From positions 16,431 to 80,430 of the forward strand of contig VBID01000115.1 in NCBI GenBank assembly GCA_005880615.1: a DNA stretch of 64,000 bases. The letters are read 5' to 3'. Each line of letters starts with the position of its first letter. Positions within the stretch are counted from its first letter, which is position 1. The notes beneath the pieces are model-generated. The model did no database searches. It was not told the origin of the DNA and was given only the letters and a program-made list of their open reading frames with translations. Positions 1,340-58,005 of this stretch are shown here, piece by piece. Source of the DNA: Chloroflexota bacterium. GTDB taxonomy: Bacteria; Chloroflexota; Dormibacteria; CF-121. The position numbers were made by a program, and so were the translations under genes.

Positions 1340-1534
1340 CTGGGGAAGTTTAGCCGGGATCTACCGGATCGACCTTGCATCTCGGGCGCGAGACGGCCGA
1401 TCCGGGCGTTGGCTCCTGCGCGCGCTCGCTTACAGATCGATGGATATGCGCGCTCGCGGGCTCGTCGCCGCCTTCGGCTCGCCACCCCCGCATCCCGATC
1501 TGCGTCGGCCGACCGGTAGCTCCCGGCTTAGGTG

Positions 1535-13643: not shown

Positions 13644-13826
13644 AGCCCGGATCCACCGAGCGGACGAAGCAGATTGGGATGCGGGGCCAGATGAGCCGAA
13701 GGCGGCGACGAGCACGCGAAGGCGCGCACCCGTCGGTGCGTAACTGAGCGCGCGTCAGAGCCAACGCACGGATCGCTCGCATCCGCGCCCAAGATGCGAG
13801 TTGGTTTCGGTGGACGCGGGCTTAGG
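13644..13826. mobile_element. MITE-like element, copy A (TIR AGCCCGGATCCACCGAGCGGACGA ... TCGGTGGACGCGGGCTTAGG)
   Basis: Imperfect ~25-bp terminal inverted repeats shared with copies at 22724, 29586, 36365 and 57644; one internal unit containing the hairpin GCACC-CGTC-GGTGC. The cupin gene's stop codon (13822-13824) lies in the right TIR. Confidence 0.75.
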
Positions 13827-18790: not shown

Positions 18791-22160
<3,370 letters not shown>

Positions 22161-22723: not shown

Positions 22724-22787
22724 TAGCCCGGGTCCGCCGATCGGACGACGCAGATACGAGTTCGATTCGGTGGACGTCGGCTTATTC
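22724..22787. mobile_element. mini MITE copy (left and right TIRs only, ~64 bp)
   Basis: TAGCCCGGGTCCGCCGATCGGACGACGCAG + ATACGAGTTCGATTCGGTGGACGTCGGCTTA; the marR stop codon (22782-22784) is the TAA of the right TIR. Confidence 0.7.
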
Positions 22788-29588: not shown

Positions 29589-29745
29589 GCCCGGATCCGC
29601 CGATCGGACGACGCAGATTGGGATGCGGGACGAGCTGAGCGGAAGGAAGCGACCAGCACGCGCAGGCGCCCTGGCAGCGGCTGAGCCTGGTCAATCCCGA
29701 CCAGGACTGCGCTAGCTCGTTGCTGGCGGTGGAGGGAGCCGTCGG
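29586..29745. mobile_element. MITE-like element, copy B (left TIR intact, right TIR degenerate)
   Basis: TAAGCCCGGATCCGCCGATCGGACGACGCAGATTGGGATGCGGG... shares >85% identity over the first ~60 bp with copies C and D. Confidence 0.7.
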
Positions 29746-31330: not shown

Positions 31331-32026
31331 TTGGCTAAGCAGATCGAGGCTCCGCGCCGGGCCCCCCTGAGCAGGGGCCGCGTGCTGCGCGCCGCCGTGG
31401 CGCTTGCCGACGTTGGCGGGATCGAGTCGCTCAGCATGCGCAAGCTCGCGGAGGACCTGGGGGTCGTGCCGATGGCGCTCTACAAGCATGTGGCCAACAA
31501 GGAAGAGCTCCTGGACGGCATGATCGATGTCGTCGTGGGCGAGATCGATCCCCCGGCCACCGGAACCGAGTGGAAGAGCGCGGTCCGGCAGCGAGTCCTC
31601 TCGGCGCGACAAGCGCTCCTCCGTCACCCGTGGGCGTCTTTCGTGATCGAATCGAAGAAGACCCCCACACCGATGGTGCTGGAGTACATGGACTCGATGA
31701 TCGGGTTATTCCGGGCGGGCGGCTTCTCCGTCAATCTCACGCATCACGTGATGCATGTCATCGGCAGCCGGGTGATGGGGTTCACCCAGGAGCTATTCAA
31801 TGACTCACGCACTGTGGATCCAGAAGTGCAGGCGGTCATGATGCGTGAGCTGGGACCGAAGTTTCCCAACGTGCTGGCGATCGCCATGGCGGCCTCCCAT
31901 GAGGGGGAGTCGGTCGTCGGTCAAGGCTGCGACGATCAGTTCGAGTTCGAGTTCGCGCTGGATCTCCTCCTGGACGGATTCGAAAGACTCCGACAGGAGG
32001 AGCGGGCAAGGGAGACCGCGAGTTAG
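31331..32026 (+). CDS. TetR-family transcriptional regulator
   Basis: HTH LSMRKLAEDLGVVPMALYKHVANKEELL plus TetR C-terminal ligand-binding domain; TTG start. Confidence 0.85.
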   Translation: MAKQIEAPRRAPLSRGRVLRAAVALADVGGIESLSMRKLAEDLGVVPMALYKHVANKEELLDGMIDVVVGEIDPPATGTEWKSAVRQRVLSARQALLRHPWASFVIESKKTPTPMVLEYMDSMIGLFRAGGFSVNLTHHVMHVIGSRVMGFTQELFNDSRTVDPEVQAVMMRELGPKFPNVLAIAMAASHEGESVVGQGCDDQFEFEFALDLLLDGFERLRQEERARETAS

Positions 32027-32029
32027 AAG

Positions 32030-33550
32030 CTAGGCGGTCCCTTCGGCGACCTTCTCGGTGACCTGGTACTCGAGGTACATACCCAGCATCAGTCGGGTCT
32101 GCGCCTCCAGCGCCGGGAGCACACTCAGGAAGAGCCCGACCACGGGATAGCTCACCAGCTGGAAGTACGACCACAGCTGACGCCACCAGCCCCAGCGCGG
32201 CGGCCGGGGCGGGTTGAGCCGTGACTCCACCCAGATCAGCAAGGCGATGTTGAGGAGCGTGATATTCAGCAGGCCAACCGTGATGCCGCCCAGCGAGGCG
32301 GCCGCGTTGGTCAGGCTCCAGTCGAAGTTCAACAGCCGGGGAATGGCGGCCCCGAAGAACAGCAGGATGGGGAGCGTGGCCCAGGTGAGGTGGTTGAACA
32401 CCATGTACCCGTAGCGCCGGGCGCGGAGCCACCAGGGAATATCGCTCCGTCGCAGCAGCCGGACGGTCACGTAGGGCAGGTCGCTCACCCCCCAGGCCCA
32501 CCGTTTGATCTGGTTGTACTGGTTCACGTGGGTGCTGCTCCAGTCCCGCGACTGGGGGGCGTCGCCATAGATGGGCAGGCAGACGGGGATCATCTTCAGC
32601 CGGCCGGCGGTGGTAAAGAAGGCTTTCCAGTAAAAACGGGAATCCTCGGGGATGACATCGTCATCCCAGTAGCCCACCCGGGCCACCAGGTCGAGGGACA
32701 TCGAGTAGCTGCTGAAGGCCACCAGCCGGTCCGGTCGCGACTGCAGGAACATCTGGTACTGGGTGCAGGCGCTGGCCATCACCCGGATCGCGGTCGGGAC
32801 CCGCCACAGGTTGTTGTGGAACATCGGGATGGGCTGGTAGATGCGTTCCAGGCGGCCAGGGTCCAGCACGTAGCGGTACGTGATGCAGCTGAAATACTCC
32901 CTGTGGACGCGAAAATCAGAATCGAGGTCAGTGATGACGACGTCTTTGGGGTCCAGGCCCATCCGGTCGAGCTCCTGCTTCAACACCGGCCCGCCGTAGG
33001 CCATCGCCGCCGACTTGCCGACCACGATGCCCGGCAGCAGCGGATCCTTGATGTGGAAGAACGCCCGCAGCCGGGGGCCGAACTCCTCCTGGAGCCGGCG
33101 AACGTTGTCCCACCCGGGCCGGTCCGTTTCCCGGGTGATGATCGCCACCACCTTGTTCTCGGCTGGGTAGTGGGCGTCCACGATGGCCTTGACGGTGGCC
33201 CGCAGGATCTCGTAGGGCTCGGTATAGGTGGGGATAAGGGCGGCGTGGATCACCTGGCGCGGGTCGGGACGGCTGGGATCGGTGGGCAGGTCGAGGCACC
33301 GCTGCCACCAATCCACGGCCTCCGTCATCCGCAGCTTCCGGTAGGTCCGCAGGATGCCGGCCACCACCAGGAAGGAGCGGGCAAACCAGTACACGTCGAT
33401 GACCACGATGGCGAAGGCCACGTAGGCGGCGAAGGGGAGGGAGGCGACCAGGGGCGCTGCCAGGATGATCCAGGTGAGCGTCCCGGGGGCGCGCTCGAGT
33501 GCCCGTTGGACCCGGCGCTGGGCGGGAGTGAGTACGGCTGTCCTCGGCAC
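32030..33550 (-). CDS. membrane-embedded processive family-2 glycosyltransferase (QxxRW motif)
   Basis: 506 aa; N-terminal TM helices, GT-A catalytic domain with DxD (ITDLDSD), QIKRWAWG (the Q(Q/R)xRW motif of cellulose/chitin/hyaluronan-synthase-like processive GT2 enzymes), and C-terminal TM bundle. Confidence 0.7.
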   Translation of the reverse strand: MPRTAVLTPAQRRVQRALERAPGTLTWIILAAPLVASLPFAAYVAFAIVVIDVYWFARSFLVVAGILRTYRKLRMTEAVDWWQRCLDLPTDPSRPDPRQVIHAALIPTYTEPYEILRATVKAIVDAHYPAENKVVAIITRETDRPGWDNVRRLQEEFGPRLRAFFHIKDPLLPGIVVGKSAAMAYGGPVLKQELDRMGLDPKDVVITDLDSDFRVHREYFSCITYRYVLDPGRLERIYQPIPMFHNNLWRVPTAIRVMASACTQYQMFLQSRPDRLVAFSSYSMSLDLVARVGYWDDDVIPEDSRFYWKAFFTTAGRLKMIPVCLPIYGDAPQSRDWSSTHVNQYNQIKRWAWGVSDLPYVTVRLLRRSDIPWWLRARRYGYMVFNHLTWATLPILLFFGAAIPRLLNFDWSLTNAAASLGGITVGLLNITLLNIALLIWVESRLNPPRPPRWGWWRQLWSYFQLVSYPVVGLFLSVLPALEAQTRLMLGMYLEYQVTEKVAEGTA

Positions 33551-33823
33551 GGTCCTCCTCGTGGCGGCCGCCCCCGATGGGCTGGGAGGGGCTGAAACCT
33601 AGTCTAATCGGCGCTTTGAGACACGATTTGCACCATTACCCCCCAGCGGCACTGTCAGGACCTGCGGCCGTAGCCTTCCAGACAGGGACCGTCTATACTG
33701 AAGGTCGGGTTGCCGACAGGTTCGTGAGGGGCCTGTCCGATGCTCGTCACACGGGCACCCAGCCGTCGAGCCCCCGACCTGCCAGAACGCAGGCCCAATG
33801 ATGCGCACTAAGGAGCGCGCTGT

Positions 33824-36367
33824 TTGAGCATACGGATCCCGCCTGTCGCTGCAGGATCACCCTTCGCCCGCCGCGCCCCGGACCTGGTGGCCCGGCGGAT
33901 TGCCGTCTCGGCCGCGCCCGATAGTCAGGCGGCTGCCTTGCTGGAGCACGCCGGGCCTGACGTCCTGACCCGCCTGATGACCGAGGCTACCGAGGGCGAC
34001 GGCTACGTCGACATCACAGCCACGCCCGTCCGCCTGACCCTTCACCTGCAGAAACGAACCACCACCTCCATCGAGCGCTTCGGCCTGCTCGGGAGCCTCT
34101 ACGGCACCGCCAGCAAAGACCTGGCCTTTGCCGTGGAGCGGCTGCAGCAGGACCCCGATCCGACCAAGGATGCCGGCGACATCCTCGCCATCGAGGTGGA
34201 GGAGGTGGTCCTGGACGCGCCGGCGTACTCGGCCGGTGACGATTGGGTGCAGCGGCGCCTGTGCGCGTTGCAGGAGGCCGCCTCCTTGCCGCTGGTGCTC
34301 GCCGGCCAGGAATTCGCCAACCACGAGCGCCAATGGCTGGCCAAGCAGGCCGAGCAGGACGCTCGCCCCTACGAAGTCGAAACCGAGGGCTTTATCTGCG
34401 GGAAGTGCGACAACCTCCAGCAAAACGGCCCGCGCTGCGCCGTCTGCGGGACTACCACCGGCGACCGGGCTGCCGGCGCGGTCATCGTGCTCAGCCGGCG
34501 AGGGGGCTTCAAAGAGGGCGACCGGGTGGTCATCACGCCCAGCGTGGGAAGCGAACGTGAAGGCCAGCTGCTGCGAGCCCAGGGCGGAGGCGGCCGGCGC
34601 TGGCTGGTCAAGTTACGCGACGAGGGTGCGCTTGGCCCGGGCACCATCCGGCCCCAGCCCATCACGGCCGTGGTCGAGGTCCAGCAGCGGACCCTCAACG
34701 GATTCGGAGCCGGCGACATCAGCCTGCGCCGGGTGGCGGCGCTGCTGATTGCGCCGGATGAGGTCCGGCCTCCGGTGGCCTCCGCCATCGAGCCGTTTGA
34801 CGCGCGGCTGAACCCCAGCCAGCGGGAAGCAGTCGCCGGCGGCACCGGGCTGCAGCCCGGCTCGATGATGCTGGTCCAGGGGCCACCCGGCACCGGCAAG
34901 ACCACCTCCATCGTGGAAACGGTGCGCCAGCTGGTGGCGCGCGACCCCGACGTCCGCATCCTCATGACCTCGCATGCCAACACCGCAGTGGACAACGCTC
35001 AGGAGCGGCTGCAGGGGCTGGACTCGCTCCGGATGGTACGCATCGCCGAGCCGGAGAAGGTGGACCCCAAGTTTCGCTCCAGCATCGTCGATTCCGACGA
35101 TCCACGGGTGCGCAGCGCGCACGTCGTGTTCGGCACCGTCAACCGGATCGCGCTGGCCTGCCGGGAGGCCGAAATGTTCGATTGGCTGATCCTGGACGAG
35201 GCCAACAAGGTGCGCTTCACGGAGACGCTGCCACTGCTGCGGTTGGCCCCCCGCTGGCTGCTGGTGGGTGACCACCGGCAGCTCCCGCCGGTGCTCGATG
35301 AGAGCGCAGCCGCCTTTCCGGTCGACGAGGACGAGGCCCGGGTGATGGTTCGGGATGCCAGCTTCTTCGAGCTCAGCTGGGCCGTCCTGCCGGAATCCAA
35401 CCTGGTGATGCTGGATGAGCAGTACCGGATGGCGGCGCCCATCGGGACCTACGTGTCGCAGGCGTCCTACGACGGGCGGCTCAAGAACAGCCCGGAGATG
35501 GGGGCCCTGCGCTCCCCGTTGCCCTGGCCCTTCAACCGCAACTTGACCTGGCTCACCATCCGCGGGCGCGAGAAGAAGAGCGGGTCCGGCAGCCTGAGCA
35601 ACCGGGCTGAGATCGAGGCCGTGGGACGCGTGGTCCGCCACCTGCAGCGGCTGGGCCTCGGCCATTTGAAGGTGGCCGTCATCGCCATGTACCAGGACCA
35701 GGTGACCCAGCTGCGACGGGAGCTGCGCACCATCGACCTGCCCGAGCTGTACGTCGATACCGTGGACGCCTTCGAGGGTGAGGAGGCGGACGTCGTCATC
35801 CTGAGCCTGGTCCGCAGCAACGAGGCCGAGCGCATCGGCTTCCTCAAGAAGGCACAGCGGCTGAACGTCGCCATCTCCCGCGCCAAGCACCTGCTGATCG
35901 TGGTCGGGGATATCGAGACGCTAACCGGGCGGGAAGGGCAGGACCTGTATCGGCCCCTGCTGGAGCACATCGAGCGTGAGGGCCGGGTGGCCGGCATTGG
36001 CGCCCTCCATGCCATGGACGCTGCCGCCGGTGGACGGCACCGAGATCGGCGCCGCGGGCGCGTTGGGCAACCCGCGGTCGGCCGTCGGGGACGGCGCCGC
36101 CGGCCCTATGTCGCCAGCGGGGCGGCGACCCCAGCCGTCAGTCCGAATGGCGCTGAGACGGCGGCTGAAGGCACGCCGGCCGGACCCGTCGCGGATGGGG
36201 CAGCCGGCCAGCCGACGGCCGCGCCGCGCCGGTTCAGACGTCGGCGAGGACGGCGGCGTGGGCCCGGCCGCCCACCGCTGAATGGGGAGGTGGGCCAGAC
36301 ACCAGCTGGCGAGCAGCCAGCCACGCCGGCCCAGCCCCAGCCGGCTCCGATCGCGCAGGCCGACTAA
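33824..36367 (+). CDS. Upf1-like/DNA2-like SF1B helicase with novel Zn-ribbon N-terminal domain and Arg/Gly-rich C-terminal tail
   Basis: Helicase motifs: I GPPGTGKTT, II LILDEANKV, III VGDHRQLPPV, IV DEQYRMAAPIGTYVSQASY, V/VI DAFEGEEADVVILSLVRSN...LNVAISRAKHLLIVVGD (AAA_11/AAA_12 architecture). The N-terminal ~330 aa has no recognised domain apart from a CGKCDN...CAVCG zinc ribbon. The last ~120 aa are low-complexity (RHRDRRRGRVGQPAVGRRGRRRRP...RRFRRRRGRRRGPGRP). The stop TAA is the first triplet of MITE copy C. Confidence 0.8.
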   Translation: MSIRIPPVAAGSPFARRAPDLVARRIAVSAAPDSQAAALLEHAGPDVLTRLMTEATEGDGYVDITATPVRLTLHLQKRTTTSIERFGLLGSLYGTASKDLAFAVERLQQDPDPTKDAGDILAIEVEEVVLDAPAYSAGDDWVQRRLCALQEAASLPLVLAGQEFANHERQWLAKQAEQDARPYEVETEGFICGKCDNLQQNGPRCAVCGTTTGDRAAGAVIVLSRRGGFKEGDRVVITPSVGSEREGQLLRAQGGGGRRWLVKLRDEGALGPGTIRPQPITAVVEVQQRTLNGFGAGDISLRRVAALLIAPDEVRPPVASAIEPFDARLNPSQREAVAGGTGLQPGSMMLVQGPPGTGKTTSIVETVRQLVARDPDVRILMTSHANTAVDNAQERLQGLDSLRMVRIAEPEKVDPKFRSSIVDSDDPRVRSAHVVFGTVNRIALACREAEMFDWLILDEANKVRFTETLPLLRLAPRWLLVGDHRQLPPVLDESAAAFPVDEDEARVMVRDASFFELSWAVLPESNLVMLDEQYRMAAPIGTYVSQASYDGRLKNSPEMGALRSPLPWPFNRNLTWLTIRGREKKSGSGSLSNRAEIEAVGRVVRHLQRLGLGHLKVAVIAMYQDQVTQLRRELRTIDLPELYVDTVDAFEGEEADVVILSLVRSNEAERIGFLKKAQRLNVAISRAKHLLIVVGDIETLTGREGQDLYRPLLEHIEREGRVAGIGALHAMDAAAGGRHRDRRRGRVGQPAVGRRGRRRRPYVASGAATPAVSPNGAETAAEGTPAGPVADGAAGQPTAAPRRFRRRRGRRRGPGRPPLNGEVGQTPAGEQPATPAQPQPAPIAQAD

Positions 36368-36721
36368 GCCCGGATCCGCCGATCGGACGACGCAGCTTGG
36401 GATGTCCGGCGAGATGAGCGGTAGGAGGCGACGAGCACACGCAGGAGCGCACCTGAATGGTGCCTAACCGAGCGCGCGCAGGAGACGACACCCGGAGCCC
36501 GGGGCCGTCGGACGAACGAAGCAGATTGGGATGCGGGGCGTGCCGAGCCGCAGGAGGCGACGAGCACGCGAGGGAGCGCATCCGTCGATGCGTGACTGAG
36601 CGCGCGCAGGAGACGACGCCCGGATCGGCCGCAGCCGCGCCCAAGATGCGAGTTTGTTCCGGCGGCCTCGGGCTCAGCTCGCCCGGCGCCCAGGAGGCAA
36701 GTTCGATTCGGTGGATTCGGC
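36365..36721. mobile_element. MITE-like element, copy C (two internal ~125-bp tandem units)
   Basis: Left TIR TAAGCCCGGATCCGCCGATCGGACGA; right TIR (reverse complement) GGCCGAATCCACCGAATCGAAC; ~90% identical to copy D throughout. Confidence 0.8.
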
Positions 36722-36726
36722 CGTGA

Positions 36727-38167: not shown

Positions 38168-39124
38168 TCATTCCGGGACCCACTCCCGGGTGAGATACAG
38201 CCAGAAGGCCAGGCCCGCGTAGCGACCGTAGCGCCGGAACCGGAACTTCATCGCGTCGTCGGTCGCCCGCTTCCGGTTCGCAATCCGGGCATAGGTGGGG
38301 CGAGTCCAGGAGTCGAGGACCAGCCGCGAGTATCGGCCGAGCATCATCATGATGTGCGCGGCCGCGTAGGGGCCCACCCCGGGGAGCGCCAGCAGCCGGG
38401 CCGCCAGTTCGTCGTCAGGCAGCTCGTCCGGGGTTGCCTGGCCCAGGGCCTCGAGGTCAACCATCTTGGCGGCCACCGACTGCGCCAGTCCCTTGAGGTA
38501 GGCGCCCCGATAGCCGGCTCGCACCGTGTTGCGATAAAAGGCATTACTGGCGGCGGCCATCGCCGCGGGTGTGGGAAAGGTTCGACCCCTCGCGCCGTTC
38601 GCCGGAGCGCCGGCGGCGGGCTCGCCCAGGTGGGCCACCAGCGCCGTCACCATGCGTTCGGTCGCGGACCACGCGCAGTTGGTGGTGCAGATGGTCTTCA
38701 CTATGTCCTCGAAAACCGTCGAGCTCCGGATCATGCGCCCCGCCCCGGCCGCAGCCCAGGCGAGGTCGGGATCGGCGGTGGCCAGGGCGTAGAAGGACGA
38801 CAGGTCCTCACCCAGCCGAAGGATGTGTCCCACCGCCCGGCGGACGGCATCACGGGTTCCGTCGGACGGCCTGATGCCCAGCACCGTGATTTGGGCCGCG
38901 GTCGCTCCCGCACGAGTGACGCGGACCATCCTGGGCCGGTGGCCGGCGATGGGGACGGTGACCTCGAGGGTGCACGTGTGCTCGTCCACAGCCAAGGGCG
39001 GCAGCGTCGCGACGCCGTGCGAGGTCAGCGTTCGCAGGAGATCGATGGGCTCGCCCTGAGGACCTACAAGGGGCAGGTCTATGCTGCTTGCGGCTCGCGC
39101 TGGCCCGTCGGTCACAGCCTTCAT
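38168..39124 (-). CDS. DNA-3-methyladenine glycosylase II-like (HhH-GPD superfamily, AlkA-like)
   Basis: HhH-GPD region LLALPGVGPYAAAHIMMMLGRYSRLVLDSW with catalytic Asp. Start moved to the internal Met (MKAVTDG) because the ORF's first 33 codons overlap the tRNA-Arg gene. Confidence 0.7.
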   Translation of the reverse strand: MKAVTDGPARAASSIDLPLVGPQGEPIDLLRTLTSHGVATLPPLAVDEHTCTLEVTVPIAGHRPRMVRVTRAGATAAQITVLGIRPSDGTRDAVRRAVGHILRLGEDLSSFYALATADPDLAWAAAGAGRMIRSSTVFEDIVKTICTTNCAWSATERMVTALVAHLGEPAAGAPANGARGRTFPTPAAMAAASNAFYRNTVRAGYRGAYLKGLAQSVAAKMVDLEALGQATPDELPDDELAARLLALPGVGPYAAAHIMMMLGRYSRLVLDSWTRPTYARIANRKRATDDAMKFRFRRYGRYAGLAFWLYLTREWVPE

Positions 39125-39136
39125 GATGTCGAAGAA

Positions 39137-39213
39137 TGGTGCCCTCGGCAGGACTCGAACCTGCGACGCCCGCCTTAGGACGGCGGCGCTCTGGTCCCCT
39201 GAGCTACGAGGGC
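39137..39213 (-). tRNA. tRNA-Arg (anticodon CCT), CCA encoded
   Basis: Reverse complement GCCCTCGTAGCTCAGGGGACCAGAGCGCCGCCGTCCTAAGGCGGGCGTCGCAGGTTCGAGTCCTGCCGAGGGCACCA. 7-bp acceptor stem, D arm GCTC/GAGC, anticodon stem CCGCC/GGCGG with loop GTCCTAA, T-loop TTCGAGT. Confidence 0.9.
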
Positions 39214-39284
39214 GACGACCCATCAGACGCCGTAGGCGAGTATACCCGCGCTACAATTGGCCTCTGCCGCCTGAGGCGGCTCCG

Positions 39285-39360
39285 TCGGGGCGTAGCTCAG
39301 CCAGGTTAGAGCGCACGGTTCGGGACCGTGAGGTCGGTGGTTCAAATCCACTCGCCCCGA
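39285..39360 (+). tRNA. tRNA-Pro (anticodon CGG)
   Basis: CGGGGCGTAGCTCAGCCAGGTTAGAGCGCACGGTTCGGGACCGTGAGGTCGGTGGTTCAAATCCACTCGCCCCGA. Acceptor CGGGGCG/CGCCCCG, anticodon loop TTCGGGA, T-loop TTCAAAT; no encoded CCA. Confidence 0.9.
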
Positions 39361-39445
39361 TTCTTCAAGATCGGATATTTGGGCTGCCAGGCGATCGTCG
39401 GCCACCATTTGGGTGATGGCCTCAGCCCACGCCGATTGCGAGACG

Positions 39446-57643: not shown

Positions 57644-58005
57644 AAGCCCGGATCCACCGATCGGACGATGCAGCTTGGGATGCCCGGCGAGATGAGCGGT
57701 AGGAGGCGACGAGCACGCGAAGGAGCGCACCTGAATGGTGCGTGACTGAGCGCGCGCAGGAGACGACACCCGGAGCCCGGGGCCGTCGGACGAACGAAGC
57801 AGATTGGGAGGCGGGGCGTGCCGAGCCGCAGGAGGCGACGAGCACGCGAGGGAGCGCATCCGTCGATGCGTGGCCGAGCGCGCGCAGGAGACGACGACCG
57901 GATCGGCCGCAGCCGCGCCCAAGATGCGAGTTTGTTCCGGCGGCCTCGGGCTCAGCTCGCCCGGCGCCCAAGATGCAAGTTCGATTCGGTGGATCCGGGC
58001 TTAGG
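57644..58005. mobile_element. MITE-like element, copy D (two internal tandem units; best-preserved TIRs)
   Basis: Left AAGCCCGGATCCACCGATCGGACGA; right (reverse complement) AAGCCCGGATCCACCGAATCGAACT; internal hairpins GCACC-TGAAT-GGTGC and GCATC-CGTC-GATGC. Confidence 0.8.

Follow-up and report, generated by a model that had tools for sequence, protein, structure and literature searches.

A stand-alone Upf1-like helicase of Dormibacterota with a zinc knuckle in its 1B barrel and a candidate leader RNA

Introduction

What does a Upf1-like helicase do in a bacterium when it is encoded outside the defence systems, such as Mokosh and CoCoNuT, from which, to our knowledge, bacterial helicases of this type are almost exclusively known? 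The question is raised by a gene at 33824..36367 (+) of a 64,000-nucleotide stretch of contig VBID01000115.1 (positions 16,431 to 80,430 of the forward strand; Chloroflexota bacterium, class Dormibacteria, assembly GCA_005880615.1), which at its full length is called the window below. The gene starts with TTG and codes for a helicase of 847 amino acids. An earlier note, made from the DNA letters alone, had described the product as a stand-alone Upf1-like superfamily 1B (SF1B) helicase that has a zinc knuckle and an Arg-rich tail, belongs to no named family beyond its core and is encoded by a gene with a promoter and leader of its own, and had proposed it as a candidate for anti-phage defence or RNA surveillance. 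The description holds, and the knuckle proved to be specific to the family. The anti-phage proposal was not borne out: the gene is fixed in its lineage, lies in housekeeping synteny outside defence islands, and has neither an effector domain nor a partner. A role in RNA surveillance would still be plausible.

On balance, the gene probably encodes a lineage-specific, vertically inherited, stand-alone housekeeping nucleic-acid motor of Dormibacterota, acting most likely on RNA. This reading is favoured because of the fixation of the gene, its housekeeping synteny, the strong purifying selection on it, the lack of an effector or partner and a leader that looks autoregulatory. Fixation, synteny and strong purifying selection of such a helicase, in a soil phylum that is abundant but uncultured, point to a housekeeping use of the motor that is specific to the lineage. 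What is new here is an uncharacterised, lineage-restricted variant of a known helicase type, together with a candidate leader RNA.

Domain organisation of the helicase

The protein is a genuine member of the Upf1-like SF1B helicases, with both RecA domains intact and all Upf1-type motifs. The RecA1 and RecA2 motor covers residues from about 325 to 728 (34796..36007, +) and bears motifs I, II, III, IV, V and VI; GPPGTGKTT lies at residue 353, DEAN at 458, GDHRQLPP at 482, QYRM at 533, VDAFEGEEADVVILSLVRSN at 647 and NVAISRAK at 681. The Pfam models AAA_11 (5e-30) and AAA_12 (5e-45) each match past their cutoffs, and these matches, the motif positions and a check of the open reading frame (ORF) agree with the ORF and the motifs quoted earlier. 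By sequence, the closest proteins of the Protein Data Bank (PDB) are Upf1/Nam7, IGHMBP2, Sen1 and DNA2.

A Pfam scan of residues 1-325 returns nothing significant, and only these residues were modelled with AlphaFold2 (AF2), from 14 family sequences (mean predicted local distance difference test, pLDDT, 85). The model is laid out as an alpha+beta domain at 1-130, helices at 141-178, a beta-barrel at 181-277 and helices at 282-309. Its best Foldseek matches in the PDB are Upf1 (2xzo/2gk6, E 2e-4 to 4e-4, about 160 columns) and IGHMBP2 (4b3f/4b3g). From this topology and these matches, residues from about 140 to 325 are predicted with confidence to be the stalk and 1B barrel common to all Upf1-like helicases, and not a foreign domain; the helix-barrel-helix module (stalk helices and 1B barrel, residues about 140-320) is encoded at 34241..34783 (+). 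Of the N-terminal 330 or so residues that had been said to match no family, this part, about half of them, belongs to the Upf1 family, and residues 1-135 are left as an orphan.

The CxxC...CxxC knuckle reported for the N-terminal region is indeed present at residues 192-209 (34397..34450, +), as C192-x2-C195...C205-x2-C208, inserted between strands one and two of the barrel and reading CGKC...CAVCG (CGKCDNLQQNGPRCAVCG). The full-length homologues, of about 740-920 amino acids, fall into identity tiers of 76-98%, about 50-55% and about 36-40%, and the four cysteines are invariant in all family tiers (alignments A1 and A2), down to 22% identity in the N-terminal region. Every distant relative keeps the knuckle as C-x(1,2)-C...C-x(1,2)-C. 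A 1B barrel that is predicted to bear zinc is the signature of this helicase family.

In the tier-4 protein P0070 (alignment A1, columns about 250-316), the knuckle segment is tandemly duplicated into two CPKC...CPEC units, and zinc-ribbon Pfam matches are precomputed for this protein.

The alpha+beta domain of residues 1-135 (33824..34228, +) has a pLDDT of about 85 when modelled within residues 1-325 and of 72 when modelled alone. Only A23, P68, G90 and G94 are invariant in it, none of its polar residues is, and it contains no conserved Cys or His. Fold searches with these residues reach a best E of 0.1 in the PDB and are likewise without a significant match in BFVD. Alignment and model together describe it as an orphan, non-catalytic domain, which is probably a regulatory or interaction module. 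A hidden nuclease, sensor or Cys/His-rich (CH) domain, which a structure model and fold search of residues 1-330 might have revealed, did not appear: residues 140-325 are accounted for by the stalk and 1B barrel, and a nuclease or CH domain in residues 1-135 is discounted because these have neither invariant polar residues nor a fold match.

The last 118 residues (730-847; 36011..36364, +) form a tail rich in Arg, Ala, Gly and Pro, which contains 18.6% Arg and no Lys and recurs across the family by composition. The Arg-rich character described for the tail stands, but the RGG-like spacing and RGRRRG repeats do not: RGRRRG occurs once, the sole RGG of the whole protein is at residue 226, and the tail instead bears poly-Arg clusters at residues 738-748, 754-762 and 802-814. 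The zinc knuckle on 1B, the orphan N-terminal domain and the poly-Arg tail make this helicase a natural case for how accessory modules tune Upf1-type helicases.

Distribution and selection

The homologues come from metagenome-assembled genomes (MAGs) of Candidatus Dormibacteraeota, Limnocylindria or "Chloroflexi" and have only generic protein names. An exhaustive HMMER search with a profile of the N-terminal region over 1.84 billion representatives found 54 proteins, mostly fragments, and a word-indexed search with the same region found close relatives and fragments only. Every full-length match to the N-terminal region also bears AAA_11/AAA_12, so that this region is always fused to the helicase. 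No relatives of the N-terminal region were found in the phage collections, the plasmid collections or PHROGs. Judged from these searches, the helicase family is very narrow by sequence.

GTDB contigs were searched with one genome per species, and at least 217 species-level genomes contain a relative of the helicase. Among the best 80 of these 217, which the taxonomy and isolate statements cover, nearly all are Dormibacterota and no isolate occurs twice. Some loci, near-identical or plainly of the Dormibacterota type (L007, L022, L026, L047, L051, L056 and L065), are labelled as Eisenbacteria, Acidoferrum, Binatus, Nitrosotalea, Terriglobales or Acidiferrales, and are probably mis-binned contigs in public MAGs.

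The helicase shows the pattern of strong purifying selection, because pairs that are at least 95% identical in protein are 67% identical at four-fold sites.

Fixation and genomic neighbourhood

The constant neighbour of the helicase in the lineage of the window is a divergently encoded multi-pass membrane protein of 506 amino acids (32030..33550, -), which adjoins it in 34 tier-1 GTDB loci. The Pfam models Chitin_synth_2 and Glyco_trans_2_3 match this protein only below threshold, as a weak GT2-like signal, and it has a QxxRW-like motif, NQIKRWAWG. Its constancy is one of position, and no functional tie to the helicase is claimed.

This neighbour was used to fetch 80 metagenomic loci, which avoids ascertainment through the helicase itself. 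The helicase is divergently adjacent in 58 of the 59 fetched loci that extend at least 1.2 kb upstream, with 164-320 bp between the genes, and in the lone exception the membrane protein is only 55% identical. The gene is therefore fixed in the lineage of the window.

The neighbours of 86 loci were clustered all against all, which shows an extended, lineage-specific housekeeping synteny around the helicase. In tier 1, the helicase is flanked on one side by the membrane protein, GT87 and a class-Ib tRNA synthetase, and on the other by DUF1684, SDR, THAP4-like and EamA genes; in tier 4, it lies between MTTB and a pair formed by HIT and an AMP-binding enzyme. One tier-2 helicase gene is found beside a sigma-70 gene and a glycolysis operon. 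In the window, a Zn-dehydrogenase, a TetR gene and the membrane protein are upstream, an SPFH/NfeD pair, a weak HhH-GPD ORF and two tRNA genes are downstream, with the SPFH gene convergent with the helicase, and core genes (AdoHcy hydrolase, PfkB, Lon, MFS, dehydrogenases) follow farther out. The AdoHcy hydrolase and PfkB kinase genes (19960-22160, -), 12 kb upstream of the helicase, also flank the tier-1 block in locus L001; in the genome of the window the outer synteny is thus preserved, while a rearrangement has affected the genes right around the pair of helicase and membrane protein.

PADLOC finds no match among the neighbours of the helicase in the window. The earlier note had suggested that neighbourhood conservation could reveal co-occurrence with defence islands, and had held that its defence proposal would fall if the N-terminal domain proved homologous to a housekeeping factor, in conserved chromosomal synteny and apart from such islands. 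A conserved chromosomal housekeeping synteny without defence neighbours is what was found, but the N-terminal domain is homologous to no known housekeeping factor. Patchy presence and co-localisation with defence genes were seen for divergent relatives only and not for the gene of the window.

Promoter and structured leader

The gap before the helicase is a divergent intergenic region of 273 bp. When the 300 nucleotides (nt) upstream of 35 tier-1 genes are aligned, the distal intergenic DNA is unalignable, whereas the proximal 130 nt or so are nearly invariant. The leader of about 270 bp described earlier is thus conserved in this proximal part only, and its TATACT box is present. This -10-like box (33694..33699, +) does not vary among the 35 tier-1 loci and occurs in 73 of the 74 unique leaders, and a conserved TGGC lies about 17 bp upstream of it in most relatives; a generic scan for sigma-70 promoters and terminators gave no call, the TATACT box included.

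The box is followed by a conserved structured leader, a candidate 5' untranslated region (33700..33823, +), in which P1 and P2 are nested inside helix P0, with P3 and then the Shine-Dalgarno (SD) hairpin P4 downstream. This P0(P1,P2)-P3-P4 layout recurs in individual minimum free energy folds. In tier 1 the leader is 77-94% identical, against about 50-67% at four-fold sites. A covariance model built from 21 leaders (R1) matches the window at 33694-33823 only (47 bits, E about 1e-11) and gives one match in each tier-1 locus (L001, L006-L041), always directly upstream of the helicase. Leader cells are paired in 95.9% of cases against 34-42% with slid partners, in an alignment that was fitted to the model and in which most columns are invariant. 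Four leader pairs show compensatory change, a number reached by 8 of 500 shuffles, and the covariation score exceeds that of all 500 shuffles, with few columns varying. The leader has no match in Rfam even at E<=10 and is a candidate new cis-regulatory RNA, concrete enough to be tested as such.

P1 (33715..33737, +) pairs GACAGG (33715-33720) with CCTGTC (33732-33737) around an 11-nt loop. The earlier note had read it as a palindrome, CGACAGG-N11-CCTGTCG; the inverted arms exist, but they are 6 bp long, with the seventh position mismatched, and behave as an RNA hairpin. The sequence is conserved in the arms and varies in the loop, and variants include the compensatory GGCAGG/CCTGCC and the G.U-containing GACGGG/CCTGTC. 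The G.U variants and the variable loop disfavour P1 as a DNA operator.

The SD sequence AAGGAG (33810..33815, +), 7 nt before the TTG of the helicase, is part of the GCGC/GCGC hairpin P4 (helix 6), either of its loop or of its 3' arm; the helix is 100% paired and never varies. The TTG start is kept in all 74 unique tier-1 leaders. A mini-ORF that begins with ATG and whose TGA overlaps this TTG is present in 71 of the 74 and mostly reads MRHKERH; that of the window (MMRTKERAV*, 33798..33827, +) is a variant longer by 3 nt with the frame kept. The mini-ORF may serve translational coupling or be a by-product of the SD hairpin.

Expression of the helicase appears to be tightly set after transcription, because a conserved -10 box precedes a structured leader of about 120 nt, with the SD in the last hairpin, a weak invariant TTG and an overlapping mini-ORF. 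Such a leader pattern is typical of autoregulated genes of RNA metabolism.

The tier-4 helicase genes (L003, L044-L085) have a different conserved leader of about 125 nt, with a 5'-proximal hairpin of its own that is richly covarying (GGUCCC/GGGACC, GGCCUCC/GGAGGCC, GGGCC/GGCCC) and a short hairpin by the ATG; no consistent mini-ORF occurs among them (10 of 37 only).

Comparison with known Upf1-like helicases

With its two RecA domains and the same motif set, the motor resembles those of UPF1, IGHMBP2/SMUBP2 and Sen1/senataxin. The helicase also shares with the eukaryotic Upf1-like helicases the helix/1B-barrel/helix module before RecA1 and the plan of an N-terminal domain, a helicase and a low-complexity tail, in which its own N-terminal domain would be the regulatory part. 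Unlike them, it is bacterial and limited to one lineage, has its predicted zinc site inside the 1B barrel itself and ends in a poly-Arg tail instead of an SQ-rich one. UPF1 has an N-terminal CH domain, which is Cys/His-rich, contains several zinc modules and binds Upf2, whereas the helicase of the window lacks one. It is not UPF1 proper, as residues 1-135 have neither conserved Cys/His nor a fold match and zf-CHY matches only with E 0.27, on the barrel knuckle. IGHMBP2 of the eukaryotic type has a C-terminal R3H domain and AN1 finger, and the helicase has no Pfam match to R3H or zf-AN1 and reaches 230.6 bits with the NCBIfam model of the IGHMBP2 family, TIGR00376, below its curated cutoff of 348.9, so that it is not the IGHMBP2 equivalog either. 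Nidovirus nsp13/nsp10 are Upf1-like SF1B helicases as well, arranged as ZBD-stalk-1B-1A-2A (ZBD, zinc-binding domain), and bind zinc N-terminal to the motor. Their ZBD is a separate N-terminal domain, whereas the helicase of the window has one four-Cys knuckle in the barrel and an N-terminal domain free of a Cys/His cluster.

Among prokaryotic systems, Mokosh combines an anti-phage COG1112 helicase with a PLD nuclease (Millman et al. 2022, 10.1101/2022.05.11.491447). Type I consists of MkoA and MkoB and includes an STK domain, type II consists of MkoC, and the PLD is fused to the helicase or adjacent to it (10.1101/2022.05.11.491447). The helicase of the window resembles MkoA in the motor only (PADLOC PDLC03920, 4e-102, residues about 325-720). 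It differs in lacking a PLD, fused or adjacent, and an STK, and in being fixed and syntenic outside islands; membership in Mokosh is rejected because PLD and STK are missing from the protein and its neighbours. The CoCoNuT helicase CnuH, a prokaryotic UPF1-like helicase, has an OB-type barrel on the helical stalk of its ATPase, and its gene is almost always accompanied by those of CnuB/McrB-CnuC and CnuE (PMC11090510). The barrel-on-stalk module in a prokaryotic Upf1-like helicase is common to both, but CnuB/McrB-CnuC and CnuE are not present at the locus of the window and the N-terminal domains differ. A nuclease-helicase of the Nhi or Dna2 kind is out, as Nhi matches with E 0.008 on the P-loop only and the N-terminal domain is free of invariant polar residues.

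Function of the helicase

As a housekeeping motor, a monomer of the helicase would load, with help from its basic tail, onto a single strand of nucleic acid, most likely of RNA. ATP hydrolysis would then drive 5'->3' translocation, by which structure is unwound or proteins are stripped. The 1B barrel with its zinc knuckle would lie over the nucleic-acid channel and modulate the grip, and the N-terminal domain would stand in for the CH domain of Upf1, in regulation or in the binding of a partner. In the cell, such an enzyme may act in RNA decay or quality control, in the remodelling of ribonucleoproteins or in the clearing of R-loops and transcription complexes, and not in phage defence.

Several points weigh against this housekeeping reading. 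We infer that RNA is most likely preferred over DNA, and this choice of substrate is itself one of them. The fixation count applies to the lineage of the window and not to Dormibacterota at large, and no functional partner that would point to a pathway is common across lineages, with DUF1684 downstream in tier 1 but HIT in tier 4. The support for the leader structure is moderate, given an alignment fitted to the model and few variable columns. The remaining points concern defence. The best single profile for the motor is MkoA, followed by MkoC and PDC-S37, and some divergent relatives are borne on islands. P0166 (L086 2086-4880 and 11334-16493; also L087) lies in an element like an integrative and conjugative element (ICE), with BilA-D, which is a ubiquitin-like defence operon, ImmA/IrrE, an integrase, a relaxase and TraG; P0179 adjoins two HNH_2 genes, a MazG-like gene and Mrr; and P0050 adjoins Mrr and integrases. 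These neighbourhoods may reflect a defence ancestry, or a defence role of the island-borne relatives themselves.

On this evidence, the helicase could be a stand-alone anti-phage or anti-mobile-element protein, a Mokosh-like RNA sensor that lost its PLD effector or never had one and that, by itself or together with an unlinked effector, acts against foreign RNA or intermediates of replication. A match of phrog_25411 to the helicase core (5e-54) would fit as well. Such a role is nevertheless unlikely. No PLD, STK or other effector is present in the protein or adjacent to it, and its N-terminal domain has no conserved catalytic residues. The gene is fixed, in housekeeping synteny and under strong purifying selection, the island-borne relatives have no common partner, and the N-terminal region is missing from phage and plasmid collections. 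By itself, the combination of a Upf1-like helicase and an uncharacterised N-terminus is no ground for inferring defence.

The substrate could instead be DNA, with the helicase serving repair or replication as a Dna2/Pif1/RecD2-like 5'->3' translocase on single-stranded DNA that deals with flaps, R-loops and protein roadblocks. RecA1 aligns with DNA2 (E 4e-26), RecD and RecD2 match weakly, and IGHMBP2-type enzymes are established to work on DNA and RNA alike. In the window, an HhH-GPD-like ORF is found 1.8 kb downstream of the helicase, and the gene right after the tier-4 orthologues belongs to the HIT family. The nuclease and Fe-S domains of Dna2 are lacking, however, the HhH-GPD neighbour occurs in 2 close loci only and is not conserved with the helicase, and the HIT neighbour is confined to tier 4. 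A poly-Arg tail and a leader that is structured and looks autoregulatory would also suit RNA metabolism better, and a DNA role seems doubtful.

A broader form of the housekeeping role is conceivable but unlikely: the helicase might be a phylum-wide core Upf1-type enzyme of RNA surveillance or of transcription and R-loop clearing, which autoregulates through its own leader, with the island-borne relatives as defence-type ancestors or offshoots. In that case, the N-terminal domain would be a new docking domain beside the zinc-bearing 1B barrel, and the last hairpin of the leader would sequester the SD. If true, this would be the first bacterial housekeeping pathway with a Upf1-like RNA helicase.

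Flanking features of the window

The TetR gene (31331-32026) and the tRNA genes, which had been pointed out as the surroundings of the helicase, are present nearby. Only among the closest relatives or, differently arranged, in L001 does a TetR gene adjoin the helicase, and a TetR-regulated module linked with the helicase is discarded, as TetR is not conserved beside it. The genes of tRNA-Arg and tRNA-Pro lie at 39137-39361; an island inserted at them is rejected for want of an integrase and of a deviation in GC content. The HhH-GPD-like ORF (38168-39223, -) overruns tRNA-Arg (39137-39213, -), and its true start must be downstream of 39137; the Met inside MKAVTDG is one example.

Two tandem repeat units of about 129 bp (36368..36726; TRF period 129 x1.9) separate the helicase gene from the SPFH gene that is convergent with it. 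At least 5 further copies or fragments occur in the window, at 57646-57998 (95.8% over 353 bp), 13644-13825, 1364-1528 (-), 29589-29669 and 22726-22753. The element is a short, non-coding, multi-copy repeat dispersed in intergenic regions, and the RNA fold of 36368-36726 is far better than that of shuffles (z = -8.1). It had been called a miniature inverted-repeat transposable element (MITE). The dispersed multi-copy repeat is there, but its identity as a MITE is unproven: terminal inverted repeats and target-site duplications were not demonstrated, and the CCCGGAT(C) motif at both ends of the units is a direct one and no obvious terminal inverted repeat. A REP-like element would be the alternative. 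The 129-bp repeat often occurs as a tandem dimer and is also found at the same site in L006.

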